Made by a program: the position numbers and the translations under genes. 64,000 nucleotides of DNA, taken from positions 20,163 to 84,162 of the forward strand of contig CAZVOK010000004.1 of NCBI GenBank assembly GCA_964628805.1, in the 5' to 3' direction. The notes below the pieces were generated by a model. It saw only the letters and a list, made by a program, of their open reading frames with translations. It did no database searches and was not told the DNA's origin. Shown here in pieces: positions 32,614 through 50,915 of this stretch (its first letter is position 1; each line of letters begins with the position of its first letter). This DNA is from an uncultured Candidatus Peribacteria bacterium (GTDB taxonomy: Bacteria; Patescibacteriota; Gracilibacteria; Peribacterales; Peribacteraceae).

Positions 32614-33369
32614 GTGTTCCTATTTCTTCCTCCGGAGGTTCTCATCGTATTATTCTTTCTAATGGGATTAGTGCTGGGGAGTTTTGGGAATGTGCTCATT
32701 TATCGTATTCCGGCCAGGCACAGTATTGGCGGGAGGTCGCATTGCCCGGGGTGCGGGAAGACTATTGGATTTTTTGAATTGATTCCGGTGATTAGTTACT
32801 TGGTTTTGCGGGGGAGATGTTCTCGGTGTAAGGCGTCTTTATCGCTGCAGTATCCTTTGGTAGAGCTTGTGAGCGGGCTTCTGTTTGTTCTCGCGCTGCA
32901 GCACGCAGGGGCAATTCTTCCTGCGGTATTTCTAGCACTCGGCTTCTGGCTTCTGCTCCTGATGGCCGTCATTGATATGCGGCATGCGGTGATTCCGGAT
33001 GCTTTGAATATTCCTTTCGCGGTGTGCGCTCTTGCGTATGCATTCATTGCCGGCACTTTTTCTGTATGGGGATTTGCACTGTGTATCGGATTTTTTGGAT
33101 TGCAGTGGCTCCTCAGCAGAGGCGCATGGCTTGGGAGTGGTGATGTAGTGCTGGCCATCGGCATTGGAGCGGTGGCTGGTACGTGGCCGTTTGCACTTCT
33201 GTTTTTAGGAATAGCGTATGTGTCCGGTGCAGCTGTTGCCGTGGTGCTGATTCTTCTAAAAATAAAATCTAAAAAAGACATGGTTCCTTTTGGTCCATTC
33301 ATGGCCTTCTCTGCTGTCGTCACAGTGCTCTGCGGAGCCCGCATTCTGGATTTTATGTTGGGCCGCTAG
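32614..33369 (+). CDS. pilD: prepilin peptidase (A24 family)
   Basis: GSFGNVLIYRIP, CPGCGKTI...RGRCSRCK zinc-binding region, and a multi-TM C-terminal peptidase domain with conserved Asp context (IPDAL, GSGDVVL). The start codon is GTG. Confidence 0.85.
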   Translation: MFLFLPPEVLIVLFFLMGLVLGSFGNVLIYRIPARHSIGGRSHCPGCGKTIGFFELIPVISYLVLRGRCSRCKASLSLQYPLVELVSGLLFVLALQHAGAILPAVFLALGFWLLLLMAVIDMRHAVIPDALNIPFAVCALAYAFIAGTFSVWGFALCIGFFGLQWLLSRGAWLGSGDVVLAIGIGAVAGTWPFALLFLGIAYVSGAAVAVVLILLKIKSKKDMVPFGPFMAFSAVVTVLCGARILDFMLGR

Positions 33370-33625
33370 AGTGACCGCACAAAAAAGGGCCATCAACCCG
33401 AAGGGAGGCCCAAGAAGTTATCAGCCAAGCATATGCCCTACTGGAGGGTCTCCGCCCCAGGTCTCTAGTTCCTTTTGTGTAAGGAAACAGGGACCTGGGA
33501 GAAGATCGCAGTGACTGACAAGGGAAATAATACTAGGTTTTTATGGTTTGTCAATAAAAAGACGACATTTTGGAGGAGTGATCTTTTGTTTTCTTTAAGC
33601 CATTTATAGGCCATAATTGGCACAT

Positions 33626-34066
33626 ATGGCACTTGTCGCCCAAAACCGCCGGGCTAGGTTCGACTTTGAGATCCTGGAGACCCTAGAAGTAGGGATCAAG
33701 CTCACTGGACCCGAGGTGAAGTCGTGCAGAAATGGGCATGTGAATTTGGCAGGGGCCTATGTCTCTTTTTTAGGTGGAAATGCCACCATCAAGCACCTCA
33801 CCATTTCCCCGTATCAGCAGGCAGCACCTAGTGAGCGACCAGACCCTGAACGTGAACGACCGTTGCTCCTGAAAAAAAATGAGATAGAAAGACTGCAGGC
33901 AATGAGCGCCGAAAAAGGCATCGCCATAATCCCACTAGAGGTCCATGCGGCAAAGTATATAAAATTATTGTTGGGCATTGGTCGTGGTCGGAAGACGATC
34001 GACAAGAGACAGAGGATTAAAGAGCGAGATACGGAGCGGAATATGCGAAAGGGGCAGCAGGAATAA
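33626..34066 (+). CDS. smpB: SsrA-binding protein
   Basis: NRRARFDFEILETLEVGIKLTGPEVKS...GRGRKTIDKRQRIKERD is typical of SmpB. Confidence 0.92.
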   Translation: MALVAQNRRARFDFEILETLEVGIKLTGPEVKSCRNGHVNLAGAYVSFLGGNATIKHLTISPYQQAAPSERPDPERERPLLLKKNEIERLQAMSAEKGIAIIPLEVHAAKYIKLLLGIGRGRKTIDKRQRIKERDTERNMRKGQQE

Positions 34067-34139
34067 AACGTTACACCGCGTAGCAACACGGCATGCCGTG
34101 TTGCTACGTGCGACGAACAATTTCCGCTATAATCCCCCG

Positions 34140-34736
34140 GTGTCATTACTCCCTCCTCAAATCCACCGGGTCATCGAAGAATTTTCCAAGCTTCCGGGCA
34201 TTGGACCCAAATCTGCGGAGCGCCTGACATTCCATCTTTTGCGCAGCAGTAAGGCATCTCCGGAGGGGCTGGGGAAAGCGCTTTTGGATTTAAAAAAAGA
34301 ACTTCGCTACTGCACAAATTGTCAGATGATCACGCTCGAGGAGCAGTGCGCTATTTGCATGGATAGTCACCGTGATGCATCGGTGATTTTGGTAGTGGAA
34401 GATCCATTAGAGCTGATCGCTTTTGAAAAGACTGCGTACAAAGGTGTGTACCATGTGTTGCACGGAGTGCTCTCGCCTATCGATGGCATGGGGCCGGAGC
34501 AGCTTCGTCTTCGTGAGCTTGTGGAGCGTGCTAAAACGGGGCTCATCAAAGAAGTGATCATCGCCACGAATCCAGATATTGAGGGTGAAGCCACAGCCAA
34601 CTACATCCGCATGCAGATCAAAGATTTCGTGCCAGCCATCACTCGTCTGGCTCATGGATTGCCTATGGGTGCGGATATCGAGTTTGCGGATCAGGTGACT
34701 CTGAAAGAGGCTTTGGCGGGGAGAAGGTCTTTATGA
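34140..34736 (+). CDS. recR: recombination protein RecR
   Basis: A GTG start gives MSLLPPQIHRVIEEFSKLPGIGPKSAERLTFHLL (HhH). A C4 zinc finger CTNC...CAIC and a Toprim region (VVEDPLE) follow. Confidence 0.88.
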   Translation: MSLLPPQIHRVIEEFSKLPGIGPKSAERLTFHLLRSSKASPEGLGKALLDLKKELRYCTNCQMITLEEQCAICMDSHRDASVILVVEDPLELIAFEKTAYKGVYHVLHGVLSPIDGMGPEQLRLRELVERAKTGLIKEVIIATNPDIEGEATANYIRMQIKDFVPAITRLAHGLPMGADIEFADQVTLKEALAGRRSL

Positions 34737-34850
34737 GCTTTGAATAAAGGGATTTGAAGTATGAATTATGGGTTGAAGCAAAAATCACTACCAATCCCTT
34801 ACTCCATCATTCTGAGCCAAGAATTCTCACTCACTTGGCATTTTCATGAG

Positions 34851-34892
34851 TTATCCACAGAGTTTTCCACACTTTTCCACATTTAATCCACA
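34851..34892 (+). promoter_or_regulatory. phased array of four DnaA-box-like 9-mers upstream of the response regulator/pilus operon
   Basis: TTATCCACA (34851), TTTTCCACA (34863), TTTTCCACA (34873) and TAATCCACA (34884). All share one orientation with 10-12 nt spacing. An extended -10-like TGCTACAAT lies at 34936-34944. Confidence 0.55.
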
Positions 34893-34968
34893 ATACGGAC
34901 TTTCGGCTTCCCTGTTTGCTTATTTGAGGTATTTTTGCTACAATAGTTTGATATTTCTTCTTCATTCC

Positions 34969-35358
34969 ATGGCTGACACAGCACCTCCTACCGGTACCAA
35001 AAAGAAGATTCTCATCGTAGAAGATGAGCGTCCGTTGGCACATGCATTGGAATTGAAGATAGGTCATGAGGGGTACGAAACCAAAGTATGTCTGACAGGA
35101 GCCGAAGGACTCAAAGAAGCGCTCACGGGAAAGTATGATTTTATTCTTCTGGATCTCATCATGCCGGAGCTGGATGGATTTTCCTTCCTGCAGGAAATGG
35201 TAGGGAAGAAGATCAAAACGCCCGTCATCATCCTCAGTAACTTGGGACAGGAAGAGGACAAGGCGAAGGCAAAAACGTTCGGTGTCATCGACTACTTCGT
35301 GAAAGCGAATACGCCTATCTCCACCATCGTGACACGCGTGAAAGAGGCGCTGAAATAA
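34969..35358 (+). CDS. single-domain response regulator (CheY-like receiver)
   Basis: KILIVEDE...ILLDLIMPELDG...VKA receiver signature. The length is 129 aa and there is no output domain. Confidence 0.85.
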   Translation: MADTAPPTGTKKKILIVEDERPLAHALELKIGHEGYETKVCLTGAEGLKEALTGKYDFILLDLIMPELDGFSFLQEMVGKKIKTPVIILSNLGQEEDKAKAKTFGVIDYFVKANTPISTIVTRVKEALK

Positions 35359-35401
35359 ATTTCGTTTCACTCACACACACTTCCTTCCCGGCTCCATACA
35401 C

Positions 35402-37201
35402 ATGCCAATCAAAGATTCCGACCTCGGCGCGCTTCTCCTCCAACAGAGTTACCTGAGTGCGGAGGATTTGCACATGGCTGAAGAGCAGGCAAAGGAACGC
35501 GATGTGCCGCTGAAATCCGTGCTGGTGGAGCTTGGTCTTTTGACACAGGAACTCTTTGAAAGTGCGTTGGCTGAGTACTATAAGCTGCCGTTTGCAGACT
35601 TGCTCTCTACTCCTCCTGCCGCAGAAACCATCATGCTTCTGCCGGAGGAAATTGCTCGTACGTACGGAGCTATTGTCATGGAGAAAACGGATGAGGCTGC
35701 AAAGATTGCTACGTCCGATCCCAGCAATCCTTTGCTGGAGGAAGCAATACGCTTGAACTTGGGACATGAGACAGCTGTCTTTCCAGACAAGGAAGATCCT
35801 GAGAAGAAAAAACTTCTGGGCCACAAAAATGCTCCTACTGCTGCTCGCACGTCTGCAAAAGAAGCGGATCGTAAGCCGTATGCAGGGAAAATCCAATTTG
35901 CCTACGCACCTCGTGGAGCAGTGGAGTCGCTTTTCGTGCATTACAGAAAGCCGCTTGCTACACGCTTCCAGGCCATCATCAACCAGCAGAAGAAAGTGGC
36001 TCCGGAAATTATTACAGAAATTTTCAATGATGCCATCGAGCTTCGCGCATCAGACATCCACTTTGAACCTCAGGAACACATGGTGATGGTCCGCTTCCGT
36101 GTGGACGGCGTGATGCATGTGGCTGGAAAGCTTCCAAAGGAATACTACGAAGGAGTCGTGAACCGCATCAAGATTGCATCCAACATGAAGATTGATGAAC
36201 ACTACGCAGCCCAAGACGGTGCCATCCGCTACGAGACGCCAAGCGGTTCCACGATCGACCTCCGTGTCTCCATCGTCCCTGTAGTAGACGGCGAAAAGAT
36301 CGTGCTTCGTATTCTTTCCGAGTACATCCGCACACTTACCCTGAATGACTTGGGATTCTCCGAGGAGTACCGCGGCATCTTGGAAAAGGCCGCACACAAG
36401 CCTTTCGGAATGATCCTGACGACCGGACCTACGGGATCAGGAAAATCTACGACGCTCTACACGCTCCTGAAGCTGCGTAATTTCCCGGATGTGAACATCT
36501 CTACCATTGAAGATCCTGTGGAATACAAAATCCCGGGCATCAACCACATTCAGGTGAATACCGAAACAGACCTGACATTCGCCAAGGGGCTCCGCGCTCT
36601 GGTTCGCCAAGATCCGAACGTCATCCTCGTGGGAGAAATCCGCGACGGCGAAACGGCGAGTATCGCTGTGAACGCCGCACTGACAGGTCACTTGCTCTTC
36701 TCCACCCTCCACGCCAACGATGCTGCCACGGCAGTGCCTCGTCTCTTGGAAATGGGAGTAGAGCCGTTCTTGCTCGCGTCTACACTGGAAGTCATCATCG
36801 GACAGCGTCTTATCCGTAAGATCTGCCCGCAGTGCCGCTTCAGCTACTCCATTCCTTTGAATGAAGCGCAGAAGCTCTTCCCGGGTGCAGACGAATACTT
36901 CCCTAGTAAGGAAGCAGTGCGTCTCTACAAAGGAAAAGGATGCGAAGCGTGTGGTGGCACAGGATACGTGGGTCGCGTGGGAATTTACGAATTGCTCGTG
37001 ATCACCCCTACTATTGAGGAACTCATCGTTGCACGCGCTTCTACTACCGACATCAACAACGCCGCTCGTAAGGAGGGAATGAAGCTCTTGTTTGATGACG
37101 GATTTGAAAAAGTGAAAGCAGGACAGACAACTATCGAAGAACTCATGCGCGTGGCTGCTCCTCCCGGACTTCTAACGATGCTCAGTACACACAAAAAATA
37201 A
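35402..37201 (+). CDS. pilB: type IV pilus assembly ATPase (GspE/PilB family)
   Basis: N-terminal T2SSE_N-like domain, Walker A GPTGSGKST, GEIRD, and a tetracysteine motif CPQC...CEACGGTG. Confidence 0.9.
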   Translation: MPIKDSDLGALLLQQSYLSAEDLHMAEEQAKERDVPLKSVLVELGLLTQELFESALAEYYKLPFADLLSTPPAAETIMLLPEEIARTYGAIVMEKTDEAAKIATSDPSNPLLEEAIRLNLGHETAVFPDKEDPEKKKLLGHKNAPTAARTSAKEADRKPYAGKIQFAYAPRGAVESLFVHYRKPLATRFQAIINQQKKVAPEIITEIFNDAIELRASDIHFEPQEHMVMVRFRVDGVMHVAGKLPKEYYEGVVNRIKIASNMKIDEHYAAQDGAIRYETPSGSTIDLRVSIVPVVDGEKIVLRILSEYIRTLTLNDLGFSEEYRGILEKAAHKPFGMILTTGPTGSGKSTTLYTLLKLRNFPDVNISTIEDPVEYKIPGINHIQVNTETDLTFAKGLRALVRQDPNVILVGEIRDGETASIAVNAALTGHLLFSTLHANDAATAVPRLLEMGVEPFLLASTLEVIIGQRLIRKICPQCRFSYSIPLNEAQKLFPGADEYFPSKEAVRLYKGKGCEACGGTGYVGRVGIYELLVITPTIEELIVARASTTDINNAARKEGMKLLFDDGFEKVKAGQTTIEELMRVAAPPGLLTMLSTHKK

Positions 37202-37210
37202 AACCTTCTC

Positions 37211-39520
37211 ATGCCTACTTCTGAACCTTCCTCACAGGCTGAACACACAAGCTTCTTTGGTTTTTTTGCACGTTACTTCGGAGGTTCAAAGCAAGCGCCG
37301 ACAGTGCAGCCGAAGCCTGTGCGCATGCAGGTGGCAGCACCTACGAAAAAGATTGTTTTGAAGAATTTGACAGTCGACTTGGCTGCCACGGAAAAAAAGC
37401 TCTCTGCGTCTGTGAAAAGGCATAAGCATCGTACGCATCGTCATAAGAAGAAGGTTCCATCTTCACGTAGTGCAGCGCCAGTGCAGGATAAGGCGCTTGT
37501 TCACTATATGCAGCGCAAGTCTGCGTACCACACGTTTGCAAAGAAGAATCCAGGTGCTGCATCTGCACCTATTGCCCCTGTGAAAAACGAAACCAAGTCC
37601 CCAGGAATGTTCGGCAGTGCCCTGAACATGCTTCCATTTTTCTCGCAGAAGCTTGATGAGACCACGCAGAAAACAGCAGAGCTTTCTGAGAAGATAGTAG
37701 ACACCGAACGCAAGACACAGGAAATGGCGAAGCGTTTGCACGAGACGGAACTGGAACTGCAGAAGAGCTTGGCAAAGCTTGCACCGAAAGTAGCTCCTCA
37801 AGAAACATCTGCATCTGCTGCTGTGGACACTGACGAACAAGGTTTGGGAAAGCTTTTAAGCGTAGATGCTGCCGAGGATAAAGAAATACATCTGGATGAT
37901 TTCCTGGATACCCCAGACGGAACCACGGGGCGTTTTGTGAAACAGAAGAAAGATGAGCCTATGGAGCGAAGCTCTAAGGTGGTGAATATTACGGGTCTCA
38001 AGAAAAAGGAAGCACAGGAATTCATTTCGCTCATCAATGAGCTTCCCCAGGATAATCCCGGTTTCTTGGCATCGCTCGCCGCTGCTATCCGCGAAATTCG
38101 TGCCGACTGGAAAGATGGAAGTCCTGCGACTGCCTCTAAGCTACAGAAAGAAGTTCCGAAAGACATCAAGGAACTTGCAGCTTTGGTGGATATGAAACTG
38201 GAGGCAAAGAAGAAAGGAATGATTCTCTCCGGTGCACCGGAAGGCGACAGTGCAGCTAAGGTTCCTTCTGCAGAATCGGTAGCCGCACTCGGCTCACTGG
38301 TGTCCTCTATGAAGAAAGAGGAAAACAAGGGAACCATCACCGGTATTCCGGATATCAAAGAAGTGAAGAAACAAAACGAAAAAAAGAAGAAGGAAGAAAT
38401 CATCATGCCGACTGTGGTAAAGAAGAAACAATCCAATAGTGCGCTGGGCGAATTCATCGGATCCATCAAGTACTTCGGAATGGGCAAGGAACGTCAGGCG
38501 TTTGTGCAGAACCTTGCGACTATGTTGAATGCAGGACTTCCATTGATTGATGCCCTCCACACGCTTCAAATGGAAACGCGTGTGAAGCCTGCGAAAAAAC
38601 TGATTCAGCGTGTCATCGACGCCGTGGAAAACGGATCGGCTCTTTGGAGAGCTATGGAGGCGCAGCACTTCTTTTCCCCTCATGCCATCGCACTTATTCG
38701 CATCGGTGAAGAAGCCGGAAACCTGGCGGAAAACATGCAGTACTTGGCCGCGCAGCAGGAAAAAGATGCTGCCCTGAAAGGGAAAGTGCGAATGGCTATG
38801 ATCTACCCGGCTATTGTGATGACACTCATGTTCATCATCGTGATGGGACTGGGAATGTTCGTGCTGCCAAACCTCATTCAGGTGCTCTTCTCCTTGAACG
38901 TGGAACTGCCGCTCGCAACCCGTCTCGTGATCATGTTCACGAATGCGTTTACGGAATACGGAGCGGTATTTATTCCGAGCATGCTTGTGGGAGTGGTGAT
39001 CCTCACAATCCTTGGAAAGTTCACGCGCTTCAAAGTAGTCGTACAGTGGGTGATCTTCCGCATTCCGGGCATTGGAAAGCTTGCGCGCATGGCTACCTTG
39101 GCACGCTTCGGTGTGATCCTCGGAGGACTCTTGCAGGCTGGAGTTCCGCTAGTGGAAGCCATTCACTCTATGGCGGAAGTGACACCTACGGTGGCTTACA
39201 AGAACTTTTACATCAAACTTCTGGATCATATTTCCGTAGGAGATTCCTTTGGAAAGAGCTTTGCCGTGATCCGCGGGAGTGAAAAAATTCTGCCGATCCA
39301 AGTGCAGCAGCTCATCATCACGGGTGAGCGCACGGGAACACTCGCCAAGATCATGTTGAAGATTGCCGATATCTACGAAAAAGAAGCGAACAGTACCGCA
39401 GAAAAACTCCCGGTGATCTTGGAACCAATGTTGCTCCTCTTCATCGGAGGACTCGTGGGAACGATTGCCTTTGCCATCATTGTGCCGATCTACAGTATTG
39501 TGGGAAATGTGGGTGGATGA
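37211..39520 (+). CDS. pilC: type IV pilus platform protein (GspF/PilC family) with an N-terminal charged extension of about 370 aa
   Basis: The C-terminal ~400 aa contain two T2SSF-type repeats with TM segments (LATMLNAGLPL..., LGGLLQAGVPL...). The N-terminal part is K/E/S-rich. Confidence 0.85.
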   Translation: MPTSEPSSQAEHTSFFGFFARYFGGSKQAPTVQPKPVRMQVAAPTKKIVLKNLTVDLAATEKKLSASVKRHKHRTHRHKKKVPSSRSAAPVQDKALVHYMQRKSAYHTFAKKNPGAASAPIAPVKNETKSPGMFGSALNMLPFFSQKLDETTQKTAELSEKIVDTERKTQEMAKRLHETELELQKSLAKLAPKVAPQETSASAAVDTDEQGLGKLLSVDAAEDKEIHLDDFLDTPDGTTGRFVKQKKDEPMERSSKVVNITGLKKKEAQEFISLINELPQDNPGFLASLAAAIREIRADWKDGSPATASKLQKEVPKDIKELAALVDMKLEAKKKGMILSGAPEGDSAAKVPSAESVAALGSLVSSMKKEENKGTITGIPDIKEVKKQNEKKKKEEIIMPTVVKKKQSNSALGEFIGSIKYFGMGKERQAFVQNLATMLNAGLPLIDALHTLQMETRVKPAKKLIQRVIDAVENGSALWRAMEAQHFFSPHAIALIRIGEEAGNLAENMQYLAAQQEKDAALKGKVRMAMIYPAIVMTLMFIIVMGLGMFVLPNLIQVLFSLNVELPLATRLVIMFTNAFTEYGAVFIPSMLVGVVILTILGKFTRFKVVVQWVIFRIPGIGKLARMATLARFGVILGGLLQAGVPLVEAIHSMAEVTPTVAYKNFYIKLLDHISVGDSFGKSFAVIRGSEKILPIQVQQLIITGERTGTLAKIMLKIADIYEKEANSTAEKLPVILEPMLLLFIGGLVGTIAFAIIVPIYSIVGNVGG

Positions 39521-39638: not shown

Positions 39639-40094
39639 ATGACAAAAAATCGCCCCGCATTTGCCCTATTAGAGCTCCTCATGATCATCGCGATCATTGG
39701 GATTATTTCCACTATCTCGGTGCCGCTGTATCGCAGCTACCAGTTACGGAGTCACCTGGAGACCGCAAAGAACCAGGTGGTACAGGGTTTACAGCGTGCC
39801 AAGCAGAATGCGCAGTCCGGGAAAAATGATGCCGTGTGGTCTTTTTATCCTTCCGCCGGTGTTCTATTCCAGGGTTCCAGCTACGCTACACATGATCCTG
39901 CAAAAGCAGAAATATATCCTATGCCTACGACCATTGAGATGACCGGGCTCACACAAGTGACGTATGACAAGAGAGGCTTTCCGGATGTGACAGGCGATAT
40001 TATTCTTCAGCAAATTGGTACTCCTCCCAATGCTGCGAGTGTGAAAATTGTTGTCGACAGGCAGAAAATCTCCGTGTTTCAAGTGAACCCGTAA
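39639..40094 (+). CDS. prepilin-like minor pilin (GspH/FimT-like) with Ala at the -1 position
   Basis: MTKNRPA|FALLELLMIIAIIGII has F+1 and E+5 of a class III signal, but A instead of G precedes the predicted cleavage site. Confidence 0.7.
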   Translation: MTKNRPAFALLELLMIIAIIGIISTISVPLYRSYQLRSHLETAKNQVVQGLQRAKQNAQSGKNDAVWSFYPSAGVLFQGSSYATHDPAKAEIYPMPTTIEMTGLTQVTYDKRGFPDVTGDIILQQIGTPPNAASVKIVVDRQKISVFQVNP

Positions 40095-40225
40095 CCATTC
40101 GGTGAATTATTTGTGAAGTCTTCCGCGTATCGTTCAAGAGCAATCGTCAAGTGATTTGTAGTGCACAGAGTCTTCCTCCAGGCGCTTTTTGCTACACTGA
40201 AGGACGCATTCCTTCCTTTTTCTTT

Positions 40226-41530
40226 ATGAAAAAACGTCCCGCATTCGCCTTGCTCGAGATGATCATGGTCATCGGCATCATCGGCATTGTGTCTACCATG
40301 TCTGTTCCTCTGTATCACAGCTACCAGATACGAAACGATCTGGCGCTGGCGAAGAACCAGATCACACAGGGTCTGCAGCGCGCGAAGCTCAATGCGCAGG
40401 CAGGGAAAAACGATGATGTGTGGTCCTTCTACACTCCTGCGGGCGTGCTGTTCCAGGGTGCAGACTACGCAAATCATGATGCAGCACAGGCAGAAACATA
40501 CCCTATGCCTTCTACCATTAAGATCTTCGGGTTGAACCAAGTGACGTACGACAGAAATGGTTCGCCGGACGTCACGGGAGATATTATTTTGAAAGCAGTG
40601 AACGGCGATGAAGATTCCATCAGCGTAAAGATCGCCATCGATGAAGATACGATCGCAACAGTTGTAGGAGATAGTCTCACTATCTGTCACCGTGACACAG
40701 TCACAGGAACAACATCTACCATTTCCATCACTGATGCCCAGTGGCCGCATCACCAAGGTCATGGCGATACATTGAACGCCTGCCCTGCTGCGTCTAGCAG
40801 TGTTGCAAGTTCTTCTGCTGTATCAAGTTCCGTGGTGTCGAGCGTTGTATCTTCTTCTAGCAGCGTGGCAGTTTCTTCCTCCAGCGTATCATCGGTCGCG
40901 TCGTCTTCCAGTGCAGGCGGAGCAGGAAGTTCTTCGTCCAGTTCTGTCACACAGCTCTGCAATTCAAAGTTCACCTTTGCTGATGGCTTCCTGACTACCA
41001 AAGCAGCCGTCTCCATCACCTTCAAGAACATGCTGTCCAAAATTACCTTTGGTCAAGGTGGTCCACAGATAGATGTGAACGCGTGCTACAACCCTGCGGG
41101 AGATTCCGTATATCGAAACCTCTACTCCAATAACGGCCAGTGCAAAACCAATGGATCCAATCATGGTGTTGCCGTGAAGCCCAATGGAACCGATACAAAG
41201 GTGGCATCGTTTGCTGCCAATAAGCAGGTGAAGCTGAAGATCCACGGCATGTACAAACAGCAGGGCTGGCTGGCCTTCGATGAGTCTTTTGAATCCAATG
41301 ACGGCAGCGGTCACATCCGTTTCATGCGCGATGGAGATAACCCTCTCACTTACATTGGCTTTGGAAATCAAGTGAGCCTCAAGAGTTGGCTCCAGAGCAA
41401 GAGCATGCTGGATGCTCAAGGCAAAGTGAACATTGGAGCCTGCGAGGTACTAGCGGTGGCAGAGCTGGGAGATCTCCATTCCTCTGCTGCGGATTTCCAG
41501 GACAATGTGATGCTGATTACGGTGCAGTAA
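40226..41530 (+). CDS. prepilin-like protein, paralog of 39639..40094, with poly-Ser linker and extra C-terminal domain
   Basis: MKKRPA|FALLEMIMVIGIIGIV. The first ~150 aa are alignable with the preceding gene. A Ser/Val-rich tract and a ~200-aa domain follow. Confidence 0.7.
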   Translation: MKKRPAFALLEMIMVIGIIGIVSTMSVPLYHSYQIRNDLALAKNQITQGLQRAKLNAQAGKNDDVWSFYTPAGVLFQGADYANHDAAQAETYPMPSTIKIFGLNQVTYDRNGSPDVTGDIILKAVNGDEDSISVKIAIDEDTIATVVGDSLTICHRDTVTGTTSTISITDAQWPHHQGHGDTLNACPAASSSVASSSAVSSSVVSSVVSSSSSVAVSSSSVSSVASSSSAGGAGSSSSSSVTQLCNSKFTFADGFLTTKAAVSITFKNMLSKITFGQGGPQIDVNACYNPAGDSVYRNLYSNNGQCKTNGSNHGVAVKPNGTDTKVASFAANKQVKLKIHGMYKQQGWLAFDESFESNDGSGHIRFMRDGDNPLTYIGFGNQVSLKSWLQSKSMLDAQGKVNIGACEVLAVAELGDLHSSAADFQDNVMLITVQ

Positions 41531-41549
41531 ATGTAAAAGATTTCCAAAT

Positions 41550-41575
41550 AGCGCGGGGCAACCCGCGCTTTTTAT
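41550..41575 (+). terminator. intrinsic terminator
   Basis: AGCGCGGG-GCAA-CCCGCGCT followed by TTTTAT. Confidence 0.8.
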
Positions 41576-41644
41576 ATTGCATTGCTTCTGCGAGCGAATA
41601 ATTTCCTCCTTATAGATCACAGGTGTTACACTGCACTCCTGCCT

Positions 41645-43387
41645 GTGAAACTCTTTTCTCCTTTGCGTCATCGGCGGGGGTTTCTGTTACTGGAAGCAAT
41701 TCTGGGCATTGCGCTGTTCGGACTCTTTTTAGGTGCGGCAGGTCTTACACTCTTGCGTGGTCAGGAAAGTACGCAAACAGCAGGCGACCGTGTGCGCGGA
41801 ACGGAATATTCTCAGCAGATGCTGGAGGCAGCACGCAGTATTCGGGACCAGAACTTTGCAGCTCTGACCGAAGGAGTACATGGAGTCCGCATCAACGGTA
41901 CTACCGGTAAATGGGAGCTCTACGGAACACAGGCGTCTTTTGGAAGCGGTTTTACCAGTACGCTCACTATCACCGCGTTGGATGCCAGCCGAGTATTGCT
42001 CTCGGCTAAAACTTCCTGGGGGCGCATTCCCAACCGTGCGCAAAGCGTGACGCTCCAGGGTATTCTCACTCACTGGTCATTTACGAAAACTGTAGGAAAC
42101 TGGAGCAGCTTGGTACTGAGTGGCAGCTACATCCACGGAACCGTTCCGCCTTTTACAGATGTTGTCACCTCGGGCACCACTGCATATGTCACCACGTCCA
42201 ACGCCACACAAGGATTGATGATTTTCAATGTGGCATCGGCACTTTCTATTTCCAATACTGCTACCGTCAATATCGGCGCCGGTGGTGTGGCAGCCACTAT
42301 TCGTGGGTACACACTGTATGTACTCACCACTCAGAGCGATGCGGAGATAAAAGCATATGACATCACTACCCCGACATCTCCGGTATTTCTTGCATCCTAT
42401 GATCTTCCCGGAAGCGGACAGGCCACAACGATTTCCGCTGAAGGAGATTACTTATATGTGGGAGCTACGGGATTATCGCAGAGAACCGTACAGGTAGCTC
42501 CTGTTCAAAACATTGCGAAGAGCCTCCCCTTTCCAGTATCGCTTTTTGGTGTTTCCAAGGCCGAAGCAAAAGCATACTGCTTGCACTTTGATGATGGCAC
42601 AGGAGAATATGACATGGGACCATGTAATTGTGCGCTATACCCTGAGGATTGCTCGGTGGACAGTTCAGAGGCTAGTTCAGAAGAAGCAGGAGCTACTCCT
42701 CCACCGTCTACAACAACAGTTACTCCTGCGCCTTCTACGCCGTCATCAAGCGTTTCCTCAGCTTCGTCCTCCAGCGGACCGTTTCCCGATGGAGATGACT
42801 TCTTCTCGTTCGATATCAGTGATCCCGCAGAAATTATTTTTTTAGATTCCGTGTACATAGGAGGAGTGAATGAATTGTTCCTCTCTGCTACCGATGCGTA
42901 CTTGGCTACTCCTTTGGATGCGACGGAGCTACGAATGGTGGATATTACCGACCCTGCAGATCTGACTTTGGCCGGAGGAGTGAATGTAACGGGTTCCACG
43001 GATGCCTTCACCGTTGCCCGGTCTGGCACTTCCACGCTCCTGGGGCTGCAGAAAAATGTGACCCAGGAAAATGCGCTCTTGGATATTCATTCCGCGTACG
43101 ACACATCTTCGTTCCGCACACCGCTCTTCTATGAATCCAGCGGAAGCACGCTTCGGGTGGCTCTGGATCCGTCCTCTTGTTATGGATTCCTTGCAACAGA
43201 CTGGAGGACACGTGCTGTGCAAATTATTAATGTGAATAGCCCAGCCCTACCGATGGTGTCTTCCTACACAGCACCGCTTGCCGGCGTATCGCTGTGGTAT
43301 GACGCAGCAAAAGATCGCTTGTACTTCATTACCAGCCGAGGCTTGTATTTGTTTACGCCCGGCGCCGGTGCCAATAACTGCTCATGA
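41645..43387 (+). CDS. prepilin-like protein fused to LVIVD-type beta-propeller-like repeats
   Basis: A GTG start gives VKLFSPLRHRRG|FLLLEAILGIALFG. Repeats of the form YVxT...GLxIFxV / IKAYDITTPTSP / LRMVDITDPADL and a Ser/Thr-Pro linker are present. Confidence 0.6.
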   Translation: MKLFSPLRHRRGFLLLEAILGIALFGLFLGAAGLTLLRGQESTQTAGDRVRGTEYSQQMLEAARSIRDQNFAALTEGVHGVRINGTTGKWELYGTQASFGSGFTSTLTITALDASRVLLSAKTSWGRIPNRAQSVTLQGILTHWSFTKTVGNWSSLVLSGSYIHGTVPPFTDVVTSGTTAYVTTSNATQGLMIFNVASALSISNTATVNIGAGGVAATIRGYTLYVLTTQSDAEIKAYDITTPTSPVFLASYDLPGSGQATTISAEGDYLYVGATGLSQRTVQVAPVQNIAKSLPFPVSLFGVSKAEAKAYCLHFDDGTGEYDMGPCNCALYPEDCSVDSSEASSEEAGATPPPSTTTVTPAPSTPSSSVSSASSSSGPFPDGDDFFSFDISDPAEIIFLDSVYIGGVNELFLSATDAYLATPLDATELRMVDITDPADLTLAGGVNVTGSTDAFTVARSGTSTLLGLQKNVTQENALLDIHSAYDTSSFRTPLFYESSGSTLRVALDPSSCYGFLATDWRTRAVQIINVNSPALPMVSSYTAPLAGVSLWYDAAKDRLYFITSRGLYLFTPGAGANNCS

Positions 43388-44172
43388 TACGTCTGTCATT
43401 TTTTCGTAGGCGTGTTGCACCATCTGTCTCTGCAGATAGGCCGGGGTACATATTCCTTATCAGCGTGCTCTTCATTGGCTCCATTTCCGTAGCCACCGTC
43501 GCATCACTTCTGCTACTTGGATGGGCTGCGGAACAGAATGGAAAGACGTTTGCGGAATCTACTCAGGCATTGGAAATGGCCAAGTCTTGCCTGGAGCTAG
43601 GTGTCCAGAACTTACGCGAAGACCTGAACTACGCGGGGGATGAGACCATTACGTTTTCCCAGTTCAATAACTGTACGCTTCTGCCTATTCAAGGAAGTGG
43701 AAATTCCGAGCGCATCATCTGTAGCGAGGGAAATGCGGGTCCCAATAAAAAGCGTATAAAAATGGTTTTGGTGGAAGTTCTTCCGGTGCCCATTGTAAGT
43801 GGATACGAGGAAATGTCGGATTCCAACGATTGCAATCCTGCAGACCCCGTGTCTAGTAGCAGTATGTCCTCAGGCAGCGGTAGTTCCATTGCTTTTTCGG
43901 GAGGCAGTAGCGGTGCATCGTCCGCCATTGCGTTTTCTTCTCCGCCTGCATCTTCGGCAGCATCCAGCAGCGTCGCTTCTTCTGCTCCTCCCGCATCGTC
44001 TTCTTCCTGTGGAAATGGAATCTTAGACCCAGGGGAAGAGTGTGACGATGGCAATACCATAGATGATGCGTGCACAAGCTCTTGTCAGGTTGCACCCGGT
44101 TGCTCCTGTACCAATGATCCCATGGGCTTCCCTGTGACTGTTTGTCAGGCATGCGCGCCTGTTATTGAATAA
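43384..44172 (+). CDS. PilX-like pilin-like protein with C-terminal Cys-rich CGNG...CDDGN module
   Basis: ATGA overlap with the previous gene, hydrophobic N-terminus RPG|YIFLISVLFIG, a poly-Ser tract, and CGNGILDPGEECDDGNTIDDACTSSC. Confidence 0.6.
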   Translation: MIRLSFFRRRVAPSVSADRPGYIFLISVLFIGSISVATVASLLLLGWAAEQNGKTFAESTQALEMAKSCLELGVQNLREDLNYAGDETITFSQFNNCTLLPIQGSGNSERIICSEGNAGPNKKRIKMVLVEVLPVPIVSGYEEMSDSNDCNPADPVSSSSMSSGSGSSIAFSGGSSGASSAIAFSSPPASSAASSSVASSAPPASSSSCGNGILDPGEECDDGNTIDDACTSSCQVAPGCSCTNDPMGFPVTVCQACAPVIE

Positions 44173-44195
44173 GCTCTCTACATGTAACTGGTTCC

Positions 44196-45350
44196 ATGCG
44201 CCCTTTCCATCCCCATTTTCGCTCCGGCGTCACCTTCATAGAGCTCCTGATGTTTGTGGCCATTATTTCCATAACAGGAGTGCTATTGCTGCCGCTCTTT
44301 TTTTCTTCTACGGAAAATCGCGTGAGGCAGGAATCCATTTCCAATGTAGAAGCCGCAGGTGCCGCCATTTTGCAATCCATCGGTTACGACATTCGCCACG
44401 CTTCCAGTGTCACCTATCCTCTGGCGGGTGCTACGAGTGGTAGTTTGATTCTTCAAACATTAGCATCCTCCACCAATCCTACTCGGTTTTTTCTAGAAAG
44501 CGGTTCGCTCATTGCGCTTCATGGAGTAGAGCGTACGGTTCTGAATCCGCCGGATGTGAAAGTGGTGGATTTTCAGGCGCGTAATACGTCCGGCACTCCT
44601 ACAAGTCAGAGCATTCTGATTTCTTTTACGCTGTCTCGCACTACTAGAATCACTAAAGAGGTTACCTATCAACAGAAGTTTGAGGCGCTGAATAATTTGT
44701 ACCCCAAAGGCGCACTTGCGAGCAGTGTTTCTAGTATTTTTTCCTCTGCGCCCGCATCTTCCGCGATGTCCTCTATTCCGATGTCTTCTTCGGCAGCGTC
44801 GTCTGCTCCGGCTTCCAGCAGTGTGCCTATCTCCTCAGCTGCTTCCAGTAGTGCAGCGGCTTCGTCTGCGCCTGCATCGTCTTCTGCCGGTTCATCTGTG
44901 GGGCCTGCTTCATCGACTGCCAGTTCTACGGCAACATCCAGCAGCGTTCCTGCGTGCGGCAATGGAAACGTGCAGCCGCTTCTGGGAGAGCAATGCGATG
45001 ATGGTGGAACTATCGGTGGAAACGGATGCAGCAGCACCTGCATGATGGAAAATAACTGTTCCTGTTGGGGCGAGCCTTCTATGTGTCAGTGCGGAGGGAG
45101 TTTTTCTGGAAATCCAACTCCTAGTTGCGGCAATGGAAACGTGCAGCCCAGCCAAAGCGAACAGTGTGATGATGGAAATACAGTAAATGGAGACGGCTGC
45201 AATAACGTGTGTATTGTGGAAAATAACTGCTCCTGTATAGGCACTCCTTCTAGCTGCTACTGCAATTATCCGTCGTCTTCATCGTCTTCTCCGGTATCTT
45301 CTTCTGCTGCATCCACCGCATCGTCATTTGGCGGTCCTATTATTGAATAA
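44196..45350 (+). CDS. prepilin-like protein with poly-Ser linker and two Cys-rich CGNG...CDDGN modules
   Basis: RSG|VTFIELLMFVAII class III signal. Two modules follow: CGNGNVQPLLGEQCDDGG...GCSSTC and CGNGNVQPSQSEQCDDGNTVNGDGCNNVC. Confidence 0.7.
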   Translation: MRPFHPHFRSGVTFIELLMFVAIISITGVLLLPLFFSSTENRVRQESISNVEAAGAAILQSIGYDIRHASSVTYPLAGATSGSLILQTLASSTNPTRFFLESGSLIALHGVERTVLNPPDVKVVDFQARNTSGTPTSQSILISFTLSRTTRITKEVTYQQKFEALNNLYPKGALASSVSSIFSSAPASSAMSSIPMSSSAASSAPASSSVPISSAASSSAAASSAPASSSAGSSVGPASSTASSTATSSSVPACGNGNVQPLLGEQCDDGGTIGGNGCSSTCMMENNCSCWGEPSMCQCGGSFSGNPTPSCGNGNVQPSQSEQCDDGNTVNGDGCNNVCIVENNCSCIGTPSSCYCNYPSSSSSSPVSSSAASTASSFGGPIIE

Positions 45351-46199: not shown

Positions 46200-46655
46200 A
46201 TGAAACTTTTTTCTTCCACGAGGAACGTTCGTAGCGGTTTCACGCTCATCGAACTGCTCCTTGTTATCGGTATCATCGCCATCTTGGCGTCCATCGTCAT
46301 TGTGGCTATCAACCCAACCAAGCAGTTGGGAAGCGCACGCAACGCTCAGCGCTCTAGCGACGTGAATACAGTCGTGAATGCTGTGTATCAGTACGCTATC
46401 GACAAGAACAACTTGCCTTCTACCATTACAACCACCGTCACTCCTATCTGTAAGACGGCTACTATTCCTACGGCTGCAGAATGTGTGAACCTCCGCATGT
46501 TGTCTGGTACATACATTGTAAGCATGCCTGTGGATCCAAGCGTTGCCACGGCATCTGGTTGGACTGGTTACACAATTGTGAAAGATTCCAACAACCGCAT
46601 CACGGTAAATGCATATAAGGCAGAGCAGAGTGCAAGCATCTCTGTAACCCGCTAA
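46200..46655 (+). CDS. pilA: type IV pilin, probable major subunit
   Basis: Canonical RSG|FTLIELLLVIGIIAILASIV signal, 151 aa, followed by a strong terminator. Confidence 0.85.
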   Translation: MKLFSSTRNVRSGFTLIELLLVIGIIAILASIVIVAINPTKQLGSARNAQRSSDVNTVVNAVYQYAIDKNNLPSTITTTVTPICKTATIPTAAECVNLRMLSGTYIVSMPVDPSVATASGWTGYTIVKDSNNRITVNAYKAEQSASISVTR

Positions 46656-49124: not shown

Positions 49125-49147
49125 AAAAGCGCCATAAGCGCTTTTTT
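49123..49147. terminator. bidirectional intrinsic terminator between the kinase gene and rnpB
   Basis: AAAAAAGCGC-CATAA-GCGCTTTTTT. Confidence 0.75.
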
Positions 49148-49150
49148 AGT

Positions 49151-49626
49151 CTGCTCCTCTGTACGCCGGATTCTGTCCTCTCCTCTCCTTGCGGAGATTC
49201 GAGTGGCAACCATCTCTCTGGGATAGTAGTTACCTACTACCTAAGACCGTGAGGTCATGCGGAGGGGTAGAGGGAGCAATGAAACCATTGCTGATTCCTT
49301 CCACCCAAATCCTCCTTGCACCGCCATAAGTTTGCCCTCCTTCGCTCCTTGCTTGCTTCGCTCGCAATGAGCTACGGAGGGCAGGCCTCCCTTAGCTCTT
49401 TGAGTGGAAGAAAGTAAGGAACGAAGGACCCGGTTCCCGGGCGTTTCAGCTCCACCTTCCTTTGGTCCCCTTGCGGAGATGAAGTCGTGCGGAGATCGTC
49501 TCTGTGGCACTGGTTCTACCGAGCCTTTCAAATATATGACCCGGTGACGGGCGTTACCCGCATGGCGTTCCTAAGGTGTCCGGACGTTCCTCCCACGCTA
49601 AGCGGGGGCGGTTGCCCAAGGAGCAG
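49151..49626 (-). ncRNA. rnpB: RNase P RNA (bacterial type A-like, about 476 nt, with extra insertions)
   Basis: On the minus strand: 5' P1 CTGCTCC pairs with 3' GGAGCAG. P4 strands are GGAGGAACGTCCGGAC and ACAGAATCCGGCGTA. GGGTAACGCCC and GTGCCACAGAGA are also present. Confidence 0.85.
49335..49385. repeat. copy a of the bipartite motif, embedded in rnpB
   Basis: CCCTCC TTCGCTC ... GAGCTAC GGAGGG CAGG (plus-strand reading). Confidence 0.5.
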
Positions 49627-49632
49627 ATCTGT

Positions 49633-49815: not shown

Positions 49816-49890
49816 GCCGCCTTAGCTCAGTGGTAGAGCAACTCACTTGTAATGAGTAGGTCCGGGGTTCGAATCCCCGAGGCGGCTCCA
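49816..49890 (+). tRNA. tRNA-Thr (anticodon UGU), CCA encoded
   Basis: Acceptor GCCGCCT/AGGCGGC, D-arm TAGCTCAGTGGTAGAGC, anticodon loop CTTGTAA, T-loop GGTTCGAATCC. Confidence 0.92.
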
Positions 49891-50105: not shown

Positions 50106-50795
50106 TTATTTAATGAGTGCCTGCCACGTCTGGGATGGCTTATTGGTTCTATCGGTCTTCAGGCGGAAGACGATCTCTGCCAGCTCACCGCGGGTGATGG
50201 CGCGGTCTAGCCTTTGGATGGACGTTGGAAGCGCCTTTCTACCGGCAAGTTCCTGGATGTAGCCGGTGTACCACTTTTCGTCTGCACCTCCTTCATCACG
50301 GATCTGGATTTGGAAGACGGTGGCCACAATCTTTGCTGCTTCTGCCACACTCACCGTGCGGTTTGGCTTGAACATTCCATCCGGGTAGCCGTGAACGATG
50401 CCCATCTCTTTGGCGAAGCAGATCTCATCTGCGTACCACATGTTTGCTTTTACATCGGGGAAGAGCAGTGCGGCATTTTGTTCCTGTGAAATGTTTGTGC
50501 AGTCGTTCACGCGCTGGCCTGTGAGGAAGAGCGGATTGGTCATGAGTACCACAGTCTCTGCACGGGTGATGGGGGCATTGGGTCGGAACGTGCCATCGGG
50601 GTACCCCTTCAGCACATTGTATTCGCGGAAATATTCTACGGATTCAAAGTATGCATTGGTCTTCACAGAGACATCCGTGAACGGTTCCTGGCGAAATGTT
50701 TCATCGGGAGCCGTGGCAGCAAACGATGCTGAAGCCGGCAGCAGGGTAAAAGATAAAAGGGCGACAGAGAGACCCTTACGAGCGAGGTTTTTCAT
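50106..50795 (-). CDS. secreted protein with S-layer homology (SLH) repeats
   Basis: Signal peptide MKNLARKGLSVALLSFTLLPASASFA plus three SLH-like units (FTDVS..., FPDVKANMWYADEICFAKEMGIVHGYPDG, ITRGELAEIV). Confidence 0.8.
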   Translation of the reverse strand: MKNLARKGLSVALLSFTLLPASASFAATAPDETFRQEPFTDVSVKTNAYFESVEYFREYNVLKGYPDGTFRPNAPITRAETVVLMTNPLFLTGQRVNDCTNISQEQNAALLFPDVKANMWYADEICFAKEMGIVHGYPDGMFKPNRTVSVAEAAKIVATVFQIQIRDEGGADEKWYTGYIQELAGRKALPTSIQRLDRAITRGELAEIVFRLKTDRTNKPSQTWQALIK

Positions 50796-50915
50796 AGAAT
50801 GGAAGAGGGAAAGGGTAATGATTCTCTTATAAGATGCATTTCCTGCGCACATCTTACAGGATTAAGAAGACGCAGAATGGAGCGAAATATGACAGAAACG
50901 GTTAAATCGACTCTG

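Follow-up and report, generated by a model that had tools for sequence, protein, structure and literature searches.

Predicted modular minor pilins bearing DUF4215/TIGR02232 cysteine-rich modules in the type IV pilus locus of an uncultured Candidatus Peribacteria bacterium

What are short cysteine-rich modules of the Myxococcus type doing at the C-terminal ends of two pilin-like proteins that are encoded side by side in a 64,000-nucleotide stretch of DNA (hereafter the window; GenBank assembly GCA_964628805.1, contig CAZVOK010000004.1, positions 20,163 to 84,162 of the forward strand) from an uncultured Candidatus Peribacteria bacterium? The organism is an ultra-small groundwater bacterium of the Peregrinibacteria, within the candidate phyla radiation (CPR). 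Attachment to other cells is the way of life of the CPR bacteria (Patescibacteria), and pili are at present the strongest candidates for the means by which they recognise a host. Our analyses indicate that the two proteins, encoded by the open reading frames ORF1 and ORF2, are likely to be modular minor pilins which carry, displayed at the tip of the pilus, Ca2+- and disulfide-stabilised modules with a probable role in adhesion. The features of these genes and of the neighboring paralog ORF3 are as follows (window coordinates; amino acid (aa) positions refer to the proteins).

43384..44172, + strand: ORF1, a putative minor pilin of 262 aa, without Glu at position +5 (E5-less) and weakly GspK-like, with one C-terminal DUF4215/TIGR02232 module
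43384..43446, + strand: leader of ORF1 (aa 1-21, MIRLSFFRRRVAPSVSADRPG), whose final Gly precedes YIFLISVLFIG…
43447..43833, + strand: pilin core of ORF1 (aa 22-150), in which the four Cys 69, 97, 113 and 150 are invariant
43834..44001, + strand: ORF1 Ser/Ala-rich linker, aa 151-206
44002..44157, + strand: ORF1 DUF4215 module, aa 207-258, with Cys 209, 220, 230, 234, 240, 242, 254 and 257
44158..44172, + strand: ORF1 C-terminal PVIE and stop codon
44196..45350, + strand: ORF2, a predicted minor pilin of 384 aa with two DUF4215/TIGR02232 modules
44196..44228, + strand: class III leader of ORF2 (aa 1-11, MRPFHPHFRSG); VTFIELL, which places Glu at +5, comes directly after it
44229..44711, + strand: ORF2 pilin domain, aa 12-172, predicted as a long alpha1 helix and a beta-sheet
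44712..44948, + strand: ORF2 Ser/Ala-rich linker, aa 173-251
44949..45095, + strand: ORF2 module 1, aa 252-300, 8 Cys
45120..45266, + strand: ORF2 module 2, aa 309-357, 8 Cys
45267..45350, + strand: ORF2 Ser-rich tail ending in GGPIIE, and stop codon
45354..46001, + strand: ORF3, an unfused paralog of the ORF2 pilin domain with a C-terminal 6-Cys knot

A preliminary description of the window had reported both reading frames, one copy of a CGNG…CDDGN motif in ORF1 and two in ORF2, further cysteines behind the motif, Ser/Ala tracts ahead of it and a likeness to the TIGR02232 repeat family, and on all of these points it is borne out: the frames (43384-44172 and 44196-45350) exist exactly as reported and the tracts occupy the linker positions given above. 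A strict regular expression for the motif has exactly 3 matches in the six-frame translation of the window (44008-44085, 44955-45041, and 45126-45212) and 0 matches in 200 shuffles of the window. In the hidden Markov model (HMM) searches that had been proposed as a check, all three modules exceed the curated TIGR02232 cut-off of 20.8 bits (29.4 bits for ORF1 and 69.5 bits, in two stretches, for ORF2), whereas for PF13948 (DUF4215) ORF2 lies above the cut-off of 27 (38.6 bits) and ORF1 below it (23.3 bits). When the modules are aligned with 29 segments of tandem repeats taken from other proteins, the framework cysteines are invariant or at least 90% conserved, within the motifs C-G-[DN]-G…E-x-C-D-D-G-N…D-G-C-x3-C…C…C. 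Judged by their sequences, the modules are thus true TIGR02232/DUF4215 repeats. Each of the window modules has 8 cysteines, viz. the usual 6 and an additional pair in 'NCSC…CxC', in which the usual G-[WFY]-x-C (G-W-x-C) has become N-C-S-C and the last cysteine C-x-C; this suggests that in the eight-cysteine version a fourth disulfide replaces an aromatic core residue.

The prediction of the module structure, which had also been proposed, leads to an animal protein. In phmmer searches ORF2 module 1 matches PAPP-A2 (8sl1, residues 878-925) with an E value of 1.6e-11 and module 2 matches residues 865-911 of PAPP-A with an E value of 4e-8. A two-module AlphaFold2 model, for which tandem-repeat segments from further DUF4215 proteins were aligned with the modules, has a predicted local distance difference test (pLDDT) score of 83 overall (82-89 for module 1 and 83-92 for module 2), and a hinge of six residues, predicted with low confidence, connects its two compact units. 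A Foldseek search of this model against the PDB retrieves only PAPP-A/PAPP-A2, with probability 1.0 (8sl1_A: 48 columns, root-mean-square deviation 2.1 Å, 50% identity). The matching region of PAPP-A is domain M3 (S944-G995), which consists of strands and coils, contains disulfides within the domain and holds two Ca2+ ions; according to the structure paper, no similarity to it in sequence had been described (PMC9579167). The modules are therefore homologous, in sequence and in predicted fold, to human PAPP-A/PAPP-A2 domain M3, which is the one representative of the module with a solved structure (PDB 8a7d, 7ufg, 8d8o, and 8sl1; 42-50% identity), and by this homology the pilin modules would be Ca2+-binding, disulfide-stabilised mini-domains. 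M3 differs from the window modules in having 6 cysteines and in lying inside an animal metalloproteinase, as part of its scaffold, and it has no known ligand-binding role of its own. The locus links DUF4215 to this solved Ca2+-binding domain.

The carriers of these modules had been described as pilin-type proteins with class III signals, and for ORF2 this holds in full. At its N-terminus, MRPFHPHFRSG followed by VTFIELLMFVAIISITGVLLLPLFF, a short basic leader, Gly at -1, a hydrophobic stretch of ~20 aa and Glu at +5 are all present, and M1, R2, R9, G11, V12, T13, F14, and E16 are invariant in the alignment of the ORF2 family. The public gene call for this protein (P0001, 366 aa) begins at an internal Met, 18 aa late (44196-44249). 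As this truncation takes away the class III signal, the pilin nature of this DUF4215 protein would escape automated annotation. AlphaFold2, run on a 58-sequence alignment of the family, predicts a helix (residues 14-67) on a beta-sheet, with eight strands to residue 167, at pLDDT values of 88-98; in this pilin-domain run the linker (pLDDT <65) and the modules are not resolved. The class III signal, the confidently predicted pilin fold, and the operon context described below together identify ORF2 as a predicted pilin.

The pilin domain of ORF2 shares 47% identity with ORF3 (E 1e-45), and an exhaustive profile search places 2523 proteins, mostly of 165-215 aa, in the ORF2/ORF3 family at E<=0.001. 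ORF3 and other members of this family show weak matches to the N_methyl, GspH, GspI, and ComG-type (ComGD/GE/GF) models, TIGR02532 is matched by 6 of the 58 ORF2-family members, and the N-terminal methylation motif of ORF3 scores 18.5 bits, under the cut-off of 21.2. Against the PDB, the ORF2/ORF3 profile matches only the N-terminal helices of solved pilins, with E values of 0.005 or weaker. The ORF3-type minor pilins (P0120-P0163) have a conserved C-terminal six-Cys knot, C-x-C…P-x-C…W…C…G-x-C…C, which was matched by no family model; exactly 6 cysteines are found in 44 of the 149 family representatives. ORF2 has its linker and modules in place of the six-Cys knot in which many members of the family end.

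For ORF1 the claim of a canonical class III N-terminus is not supported. A leader, a Gly, and a hydrophobic helix (G-YIFLIS) are present, and G21, Y22, and I23 are invariant across the family alignment, but Ile instead of Glu occupies +5 and the signal is non-canonical. The GspK model NF037980 is matched weakly at the N-terminus by 6 of the 9 members of the ORF1 family (E 0.018-0.05; 13-15 bits against a cut-off of 130), and a profile search of the PDB with this family matched nothing meaningful. ORF1 resembles the GspK/PilX-type minor pilins in its putative Gly cleavage site, the absence of Glu5, and its position among minor-pilin genes; unlike GspK, its core of ~130 aa is too short for the inserted alpha-domain and contains four conserved cysteines. 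The orthologs of ORF1 occupy the same operon position in related organisms. The ORF1-type core makes up the entire protein (137-170 aa) and ends just past the fourth Cys in 20 of 20 metagenome loci, and likewise in P0270-P0272. Based on these comparisons, ORF1 is a member of a conserved, E5-less, weakly GspK-like family of putative minor pilins that usually consist of the core alone (~140 aa), and the bare-core relatives therefore indicate that its DUF4215 tail is an addition to a pre-existing minor pilin.

Both genes lie within a type IV pilus (T4P) locus that extends over 32.6-49 kb of the window and comprises a prepilin peptidase, RecR, PilB, PilC, 7 consecutive pilin-like genes, and a histidine kinase; ORF1 and ORF2 are pilin genes 4 and 5 of the seven. 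Its other features are listed here.

32614..39520, + strand: assembly genes and RecR
32614-33369, + strand: A24 prepilin peptidase, PilD (Pfam A24_N_bact/Peptidase_A24)
35402-37201, + strand: assembly ATPase PilB (T2SSE, 1e-119)
37211-39520, + strand: platform protein PilC (T2SSF, 2e-45)
39639..43387, + strand: three pilin genes upstream of ORF1 (151 aa, 459 aa, and 601 aa)
46200..46655, + strand: probable major pilin, 151 aa (N_methyl 30.2 bits, TIGR02532 29.4 bits, GspG E 1.5e-9)

The upstream pilin of 459 aa has a Ser linker and a C-terminal domain, and that of 601 aa has LVIVD-like repeats. The first two pilin genes (39645-39944 and 40229-40528) are tandem paralogs with 74% DNA identity over 300 nucleotides (nt), and carry signals of the RPA/FALLE type in which Ala replaces Gly at -1. 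In a species-level genome collection, relatives of the ORF1 and ORF2 pilin domains were found in only five metagenome-assembled genomes, all from Candidatus Peregrinibacteria/Peribacteria and with identical gene order, which places the organism of the window in that CPR lineage, and the synteny of the pilus locus is kept in the related loci L002-L007. An artefact of assembly or gene calling was considered and rejected: the genes recur on an independent Logan contig and the architectures recur in related species.

The composition of this locus also bears on whether its filament lies outside the cell. ORF1 and ORF2 could be pseudopilins of a Com-like or secretion pseudopilus inside the envelope, with the modules acting in the wall zone (wall anchoring, or uptake of DNA or substrates). 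No PilM/N/O/P/Q, secretin, or PilT is present among the window genes scanned, members of the family match the ComGD/GE/GF and GspH models, and CPR bacteria rely on the uptake of DNA and nutrients, all of which would suit such an arrangement. However, monoderm T4P are likewise without secretins, the acidic, E/D-rich modules of Ca2+ type are poor candidates for DNA binding, twitching-motility and T4P genes are described in the Peribacteria genome paper (PMC4736985), and a set of seven large-headed pilin genes resembles the Saccharibacteria T4P loci which make external filaments (PMC11623550). We consider a pseudopilus very unlikely.

As modular minor pilins of an external pilus, ORF1 and ORF2 would lose their leaders to PilD, and the N-terminal pilin module of each would insert into the filament through its hydrophobic alpha1 helix, while a flexible Ser/Ala-rich tether of 55-80 aa would join it to a cysteine-rich head of one (ORF1) or two (ORF2) acidic modules of ~48 aa of the DUF4215/TIGR02232 type. 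Each module would most likely be held by four disulfides and by Ca2+ at the acidic residues of E-x-C-D-D-G-N…D-G-C. The pilin modules may enter the minor-pilin complex that primes or caps the filament and so end at its tip; we infer display at or near the tip because ORF1, like GspK, has no Glu5 and sits among minor-pilin genes. The modules would then be exchangeable effector heads, most likely attaching to a host cell or a surface, an adhesive role that is suggested by analogy with characterised pilins. These are PilB and PilC of Streptococcus sanguinis, both modular pilins (PMC8179133), and PilX2 of Saccharibacteria, a minor pilin with a C-terminal propeller which is required for efficient host binding (PMC11623550).

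Comparison with relatives shows that modules are exchanged among them. In the closest of these, L007 (a JGI contig with the same operon), the ORF1 ortholog P0269 has the same single module, and the ORF2 ortholog P0119 (L007 10831-12891, 686 aa), at the same operon position as ORF2, has a BNR/Sortilin-like propeller that is flanked on both sides by a Ser-rich stretch and followed by the same two modules. This propeller, of ~300 aa with repeated SSDYGxTW, is cleanly absent from the window ORF2, a case of domain gain or loss at the linker. On the ORF1 scaffold, DUF4215 tails are detected by HMM in the window, in P0269 of L007, and in L005 (one stretch, 44.3 bits), and the ORF1 ortholog of L004 has two module-like repeats that fit a looser motif and are under the HMM threshold. 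A different cysteine-rich domain is found in the ORF1 ortholog of L002, and that of L003 (8528-9853) has the C-terminal domain of the 459-aa pilin of the window (40151-41530) with 29% identity (E 3e-15). Among the ORF3-type pilins, P0133 and P0134 have 1-3 TIGR02232 stretches. The domain common to the 459-aa pilin and the L003 protein is ~190 aa in length, lies behind Ser linkers, ends in …DF(Q)D-x-V-(M/L)-L-(I/V)…, and has no Pfam or NCBIfam match; it is carried by a GspH-like pilin in the window and by a GspK-like pilin in L003.

The linkers at which these differences occur are 55-80 aa long and Ser/Ala-rich, with 20-21 Ser in their richest 40-aa windows (21 in the ORF1 linker). A search of the linkers for tandem DNA repeats found none; what they have in common is limited to Ser-codon repeats that are short and imperfect. 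In the comparison of the window with its closest relative, nonsynonymous divergence (dN) is 0.15-0.17 for the modules and 0.15-0.16 for the pilin cores, and it reaches 0.42 (ORF2) and 0.54 (ORF1) in the linkers; the ORF1 module is 75% identical to that of P0269, with a dN of 0.17 against 0.15 for the ORF1 core. Synonymous divergence (dS) is saturated, which makes dN/dS ratios rough, and the comparison is made on dN alone. The dN of the modules equals that of the pilin cores and amounts to roughly one third of the linker values, and the modules are therefore maintained by purifying selection, whereas the linkers are free to vary and mark the sites of domain gain and loss.

The extreme C-termini show a further similarity between the two genes. 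The last 20 nt of ORF1 (44153-44172) and ORF2 (45331-45350), including the TAA stop codon, are identical at 17 of 20 positions and encode APVIE and GPIIE. The shared (V/I)IE ending that had been described is thus seen in both proteins as PVIE and PIIE, but it is not kept in the closest ortholog of ORF1, P0269, which ends in GGAQ; similar endings occur in P0119 (LPIFME) and in the L004 ortholog of ORF1 (GPIVE). A hydrophobic-hydrophobic-Glu terminus is present in no other of the 54 window ORFs. These shared 3' ends could reflect a common origin or a terminal motif. A sorting signal of the MYXO-CTERM, PEP-CTERM, or LPXTG type was rejected, as neither a hydrophobic helix nor a basic tail follows the modules.

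These observations can be extended to a more speculative proposal, that the minor pilins of Peregrinibacteria form a plug-and-play tip. The linkers, with their repetitive TCN/AGC DNA, would act as recombination joints at which heads (DUF4215, BNR propellers, the ORFb-type domain, other Cys knots) are swapped between scaffolds, perhaps also with large cysteine-rich surface proteins, so that the specificity for host or substrate would be set strain by strain; DUF4215 would be a Ca2+-dependent ligand binder and P-[IV]-[IV]-E-COOH a new recognition or capping signal. We regard this extended proposal as decidedly unlikely in its entirety.

The main rival to an adhesive function is a structural one, in which the modules are inert, rigid, protease-resistant spacers or caps that extend, protect, or set the geometry of the tip, while binding is the task of other minor pilins (for example the 601-aa propeller protein or the 459-aa protein). 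The usual carriers of DUF4215 repeats are large surface proteins, where they build up long stalk-like arrays, M3 serves as a small connector within the PAPP-A scaffold, larger candidate binding domains are encoded in the same operon, and the ORF2 ortholog has its BNR propeller besides the modules. On the other hand, both ORF1 and ORF2 carry their modules at the end of the protein, where one or two of them beyond a flexible Ser linker make a poor spacer, and the modules are as strongly conserved as the pilin cores. A purely structural role thus appears unlikely, and adhesive display at the tip is the function that we prefer.

The preliminary description had further held that the modules imply the formation of disulfides outside the cytoplasm, and the cysteines of the locus agree with this. 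All seven mature pilins have even cysteine counts (0, 6, 6, 12, 16, 6, and 2), the cytoplasmic PilC has 0, and the cysteine columns are invariant or nearly so in the alignments of the ORF1 family and of the modules; conserved, even-numbered cysteines point to extracytoplasmic disulfides. Unoxidised cysteines that bind Zn or Fe, or remain free thiols, in an anaerobe without a quinone pool have to be considered as well, in view of the general lack of respiratory chains in CPR bacteria, the CxxC Zn sites in PilB and RecR of the window, and the lack of a Dsb gene among the 18 window proteins scanned. However, the M domains of PAPP-A have intradomain disulfides and M3 binds Ca2+, not Zn; the spacing of the cysteines is that of the extracellular repeat family; the cysteines are even in number in every exported pilin and absent from PilC; and the gene table of Ca. 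Peribacter riflensis lists DsbB together with two DsbA-like proteins (PMC4736985 supplement). We hold unoxidised cysteines to be extremely improbable. [quoted passage not shown] With such proteins and Dsb genes on record, oxidative folding outside the cytoplasm was therefore already expected in this lineage.

Several points, in addition to the saturation of dS, weigh against tip-displayed adhesive pilins as the explanation of this pair. Neither ORF1 nor ORF2 itself matches Pfam N_methyl or TIGR02532 at E<=0.1, and the similarity of ORF1 to GspK (14.6 bits) falls far under the cut-off of 130. A Foldseek search of the full-length ORF2 model against the PDB gives no significant pilin match (levivirus coat proteins and, at E 0.27, S. 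sanguinis PilB are retrieved, all without significance); this result was not used in classifying the protein as a pilin. No DsbB, DsbA, or VKOR (PF02600, PF01323/PF13462, and PF07884) was detected among the 18 window proteins scanned. The location at the tip, the processing by PilD, and the incorporation of ORF1 and ORF2 into a filament are predictions from their sequences and gene context. We know of no function assigned to DUF4215, so that adhesion is proposed by analogy alone.

The closest described parallels to these proteins are the modular pilins. The survey by Raynaud et al. (2021) lists >1,200 of them in 264 architectures, many from CPR phyla (PMC8179133), and what is found here corresponds to its definition, with a pilin module and DUF4215 modules in the same protein and bare-core relatives that show the module as an addition. 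Entries for IPR011936, PF13948, or Peregrinibacteria do not appear in the portion of its supplement that is available as text (PMC8179133), and the combination of pilin and DUF4215 may be among its 264 architectures. As in PilB (vWA module) and PilC (lectin module) of S. sanguinis, the pilin module is small and N-terminal, the effector module grafted onto its C-terminal side is of a type not restricted to pili, and the genes for these minor pilins belong to the pilus operon of a system without a secretin. Unlike in PilB and PilC, the effector is a tiny DUF4215/TIGR02232 repeat of ~48 aa in 1-2 copies, with a predicted binding role, and the connection is a long Ser/Ala tract of 55-80 aa, not a short loop.

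A second parallel is provided by PilX1 and PilX2 of Saccharibacteria (TM7x), which are likewise CPR minor pilins with additional C-terminal domains and a non-canonical signal peptide; they have been proposed as tip adhesins, and deletion of pilX2 lowers host binding (PMC11623550). Their accessory domains, unlike those of the window pilins, are a beta-jelly-roll and a beta-propeller, they belong to another CPR class, and the likeness is one of description. The module itself belongs to the Myxococcus-type repeat (TIGR02232; PF13948; IPR011936), whose motif it shares, and proteins of this type had already been reported from the same phylum (PMC4736985). The usual TIGR02232 carriers are large Sec-exported proteins with many repeats of 6 cysteines, whereas in the window 1-2 repeats of 8 cysteines are attached to a pilin.

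Disulfide-rich modules on pilin scaffolds in such a bacterium had been called unexpected, a judgement that does not hold, as Peribacteria were already known for their high cysteine content and Dsb genes (PMC4736985), modular pilins are established (PMC8179133), and pilin adhesins of CPR bacteria are supported experimentally (PMC11623550). The ingredients, viz. modular pilins including those of CPR bacteria, cysteine-rich proteins and Dsb genes of Peribacteria, and minor-pilin adhesins of CPR bacteria, have thus been described before; the pair of the window are genuine modular pilins with a DUF4215/TIGR02232 head and no new kind of system, and they leave the present view of pili in these bacteria, and of how disulfides form there, as it was. 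The identification of these putative tip heads provides concrete proteins for work on ligand binding, and the locus gives DUF4215 a minimal display context of 1-2 tethered copies, which is more tractable than the giant repeat proteins.

The region around the end of the pilus locus contains two other features. On the - strand, just downstream of the locus, 50106-50852 encodes a protein of 248 aa that combines a signal peptide with a pair of S-layer homology (SLH) domains (2.5e-27) and whose position next to the pilus locus is conserved in L007. A bacterial RNase P RNA of class A (143 bits) is located at 49146-49627, also on the - strand, and adjoins a tRNA-Thr (49816-49890).

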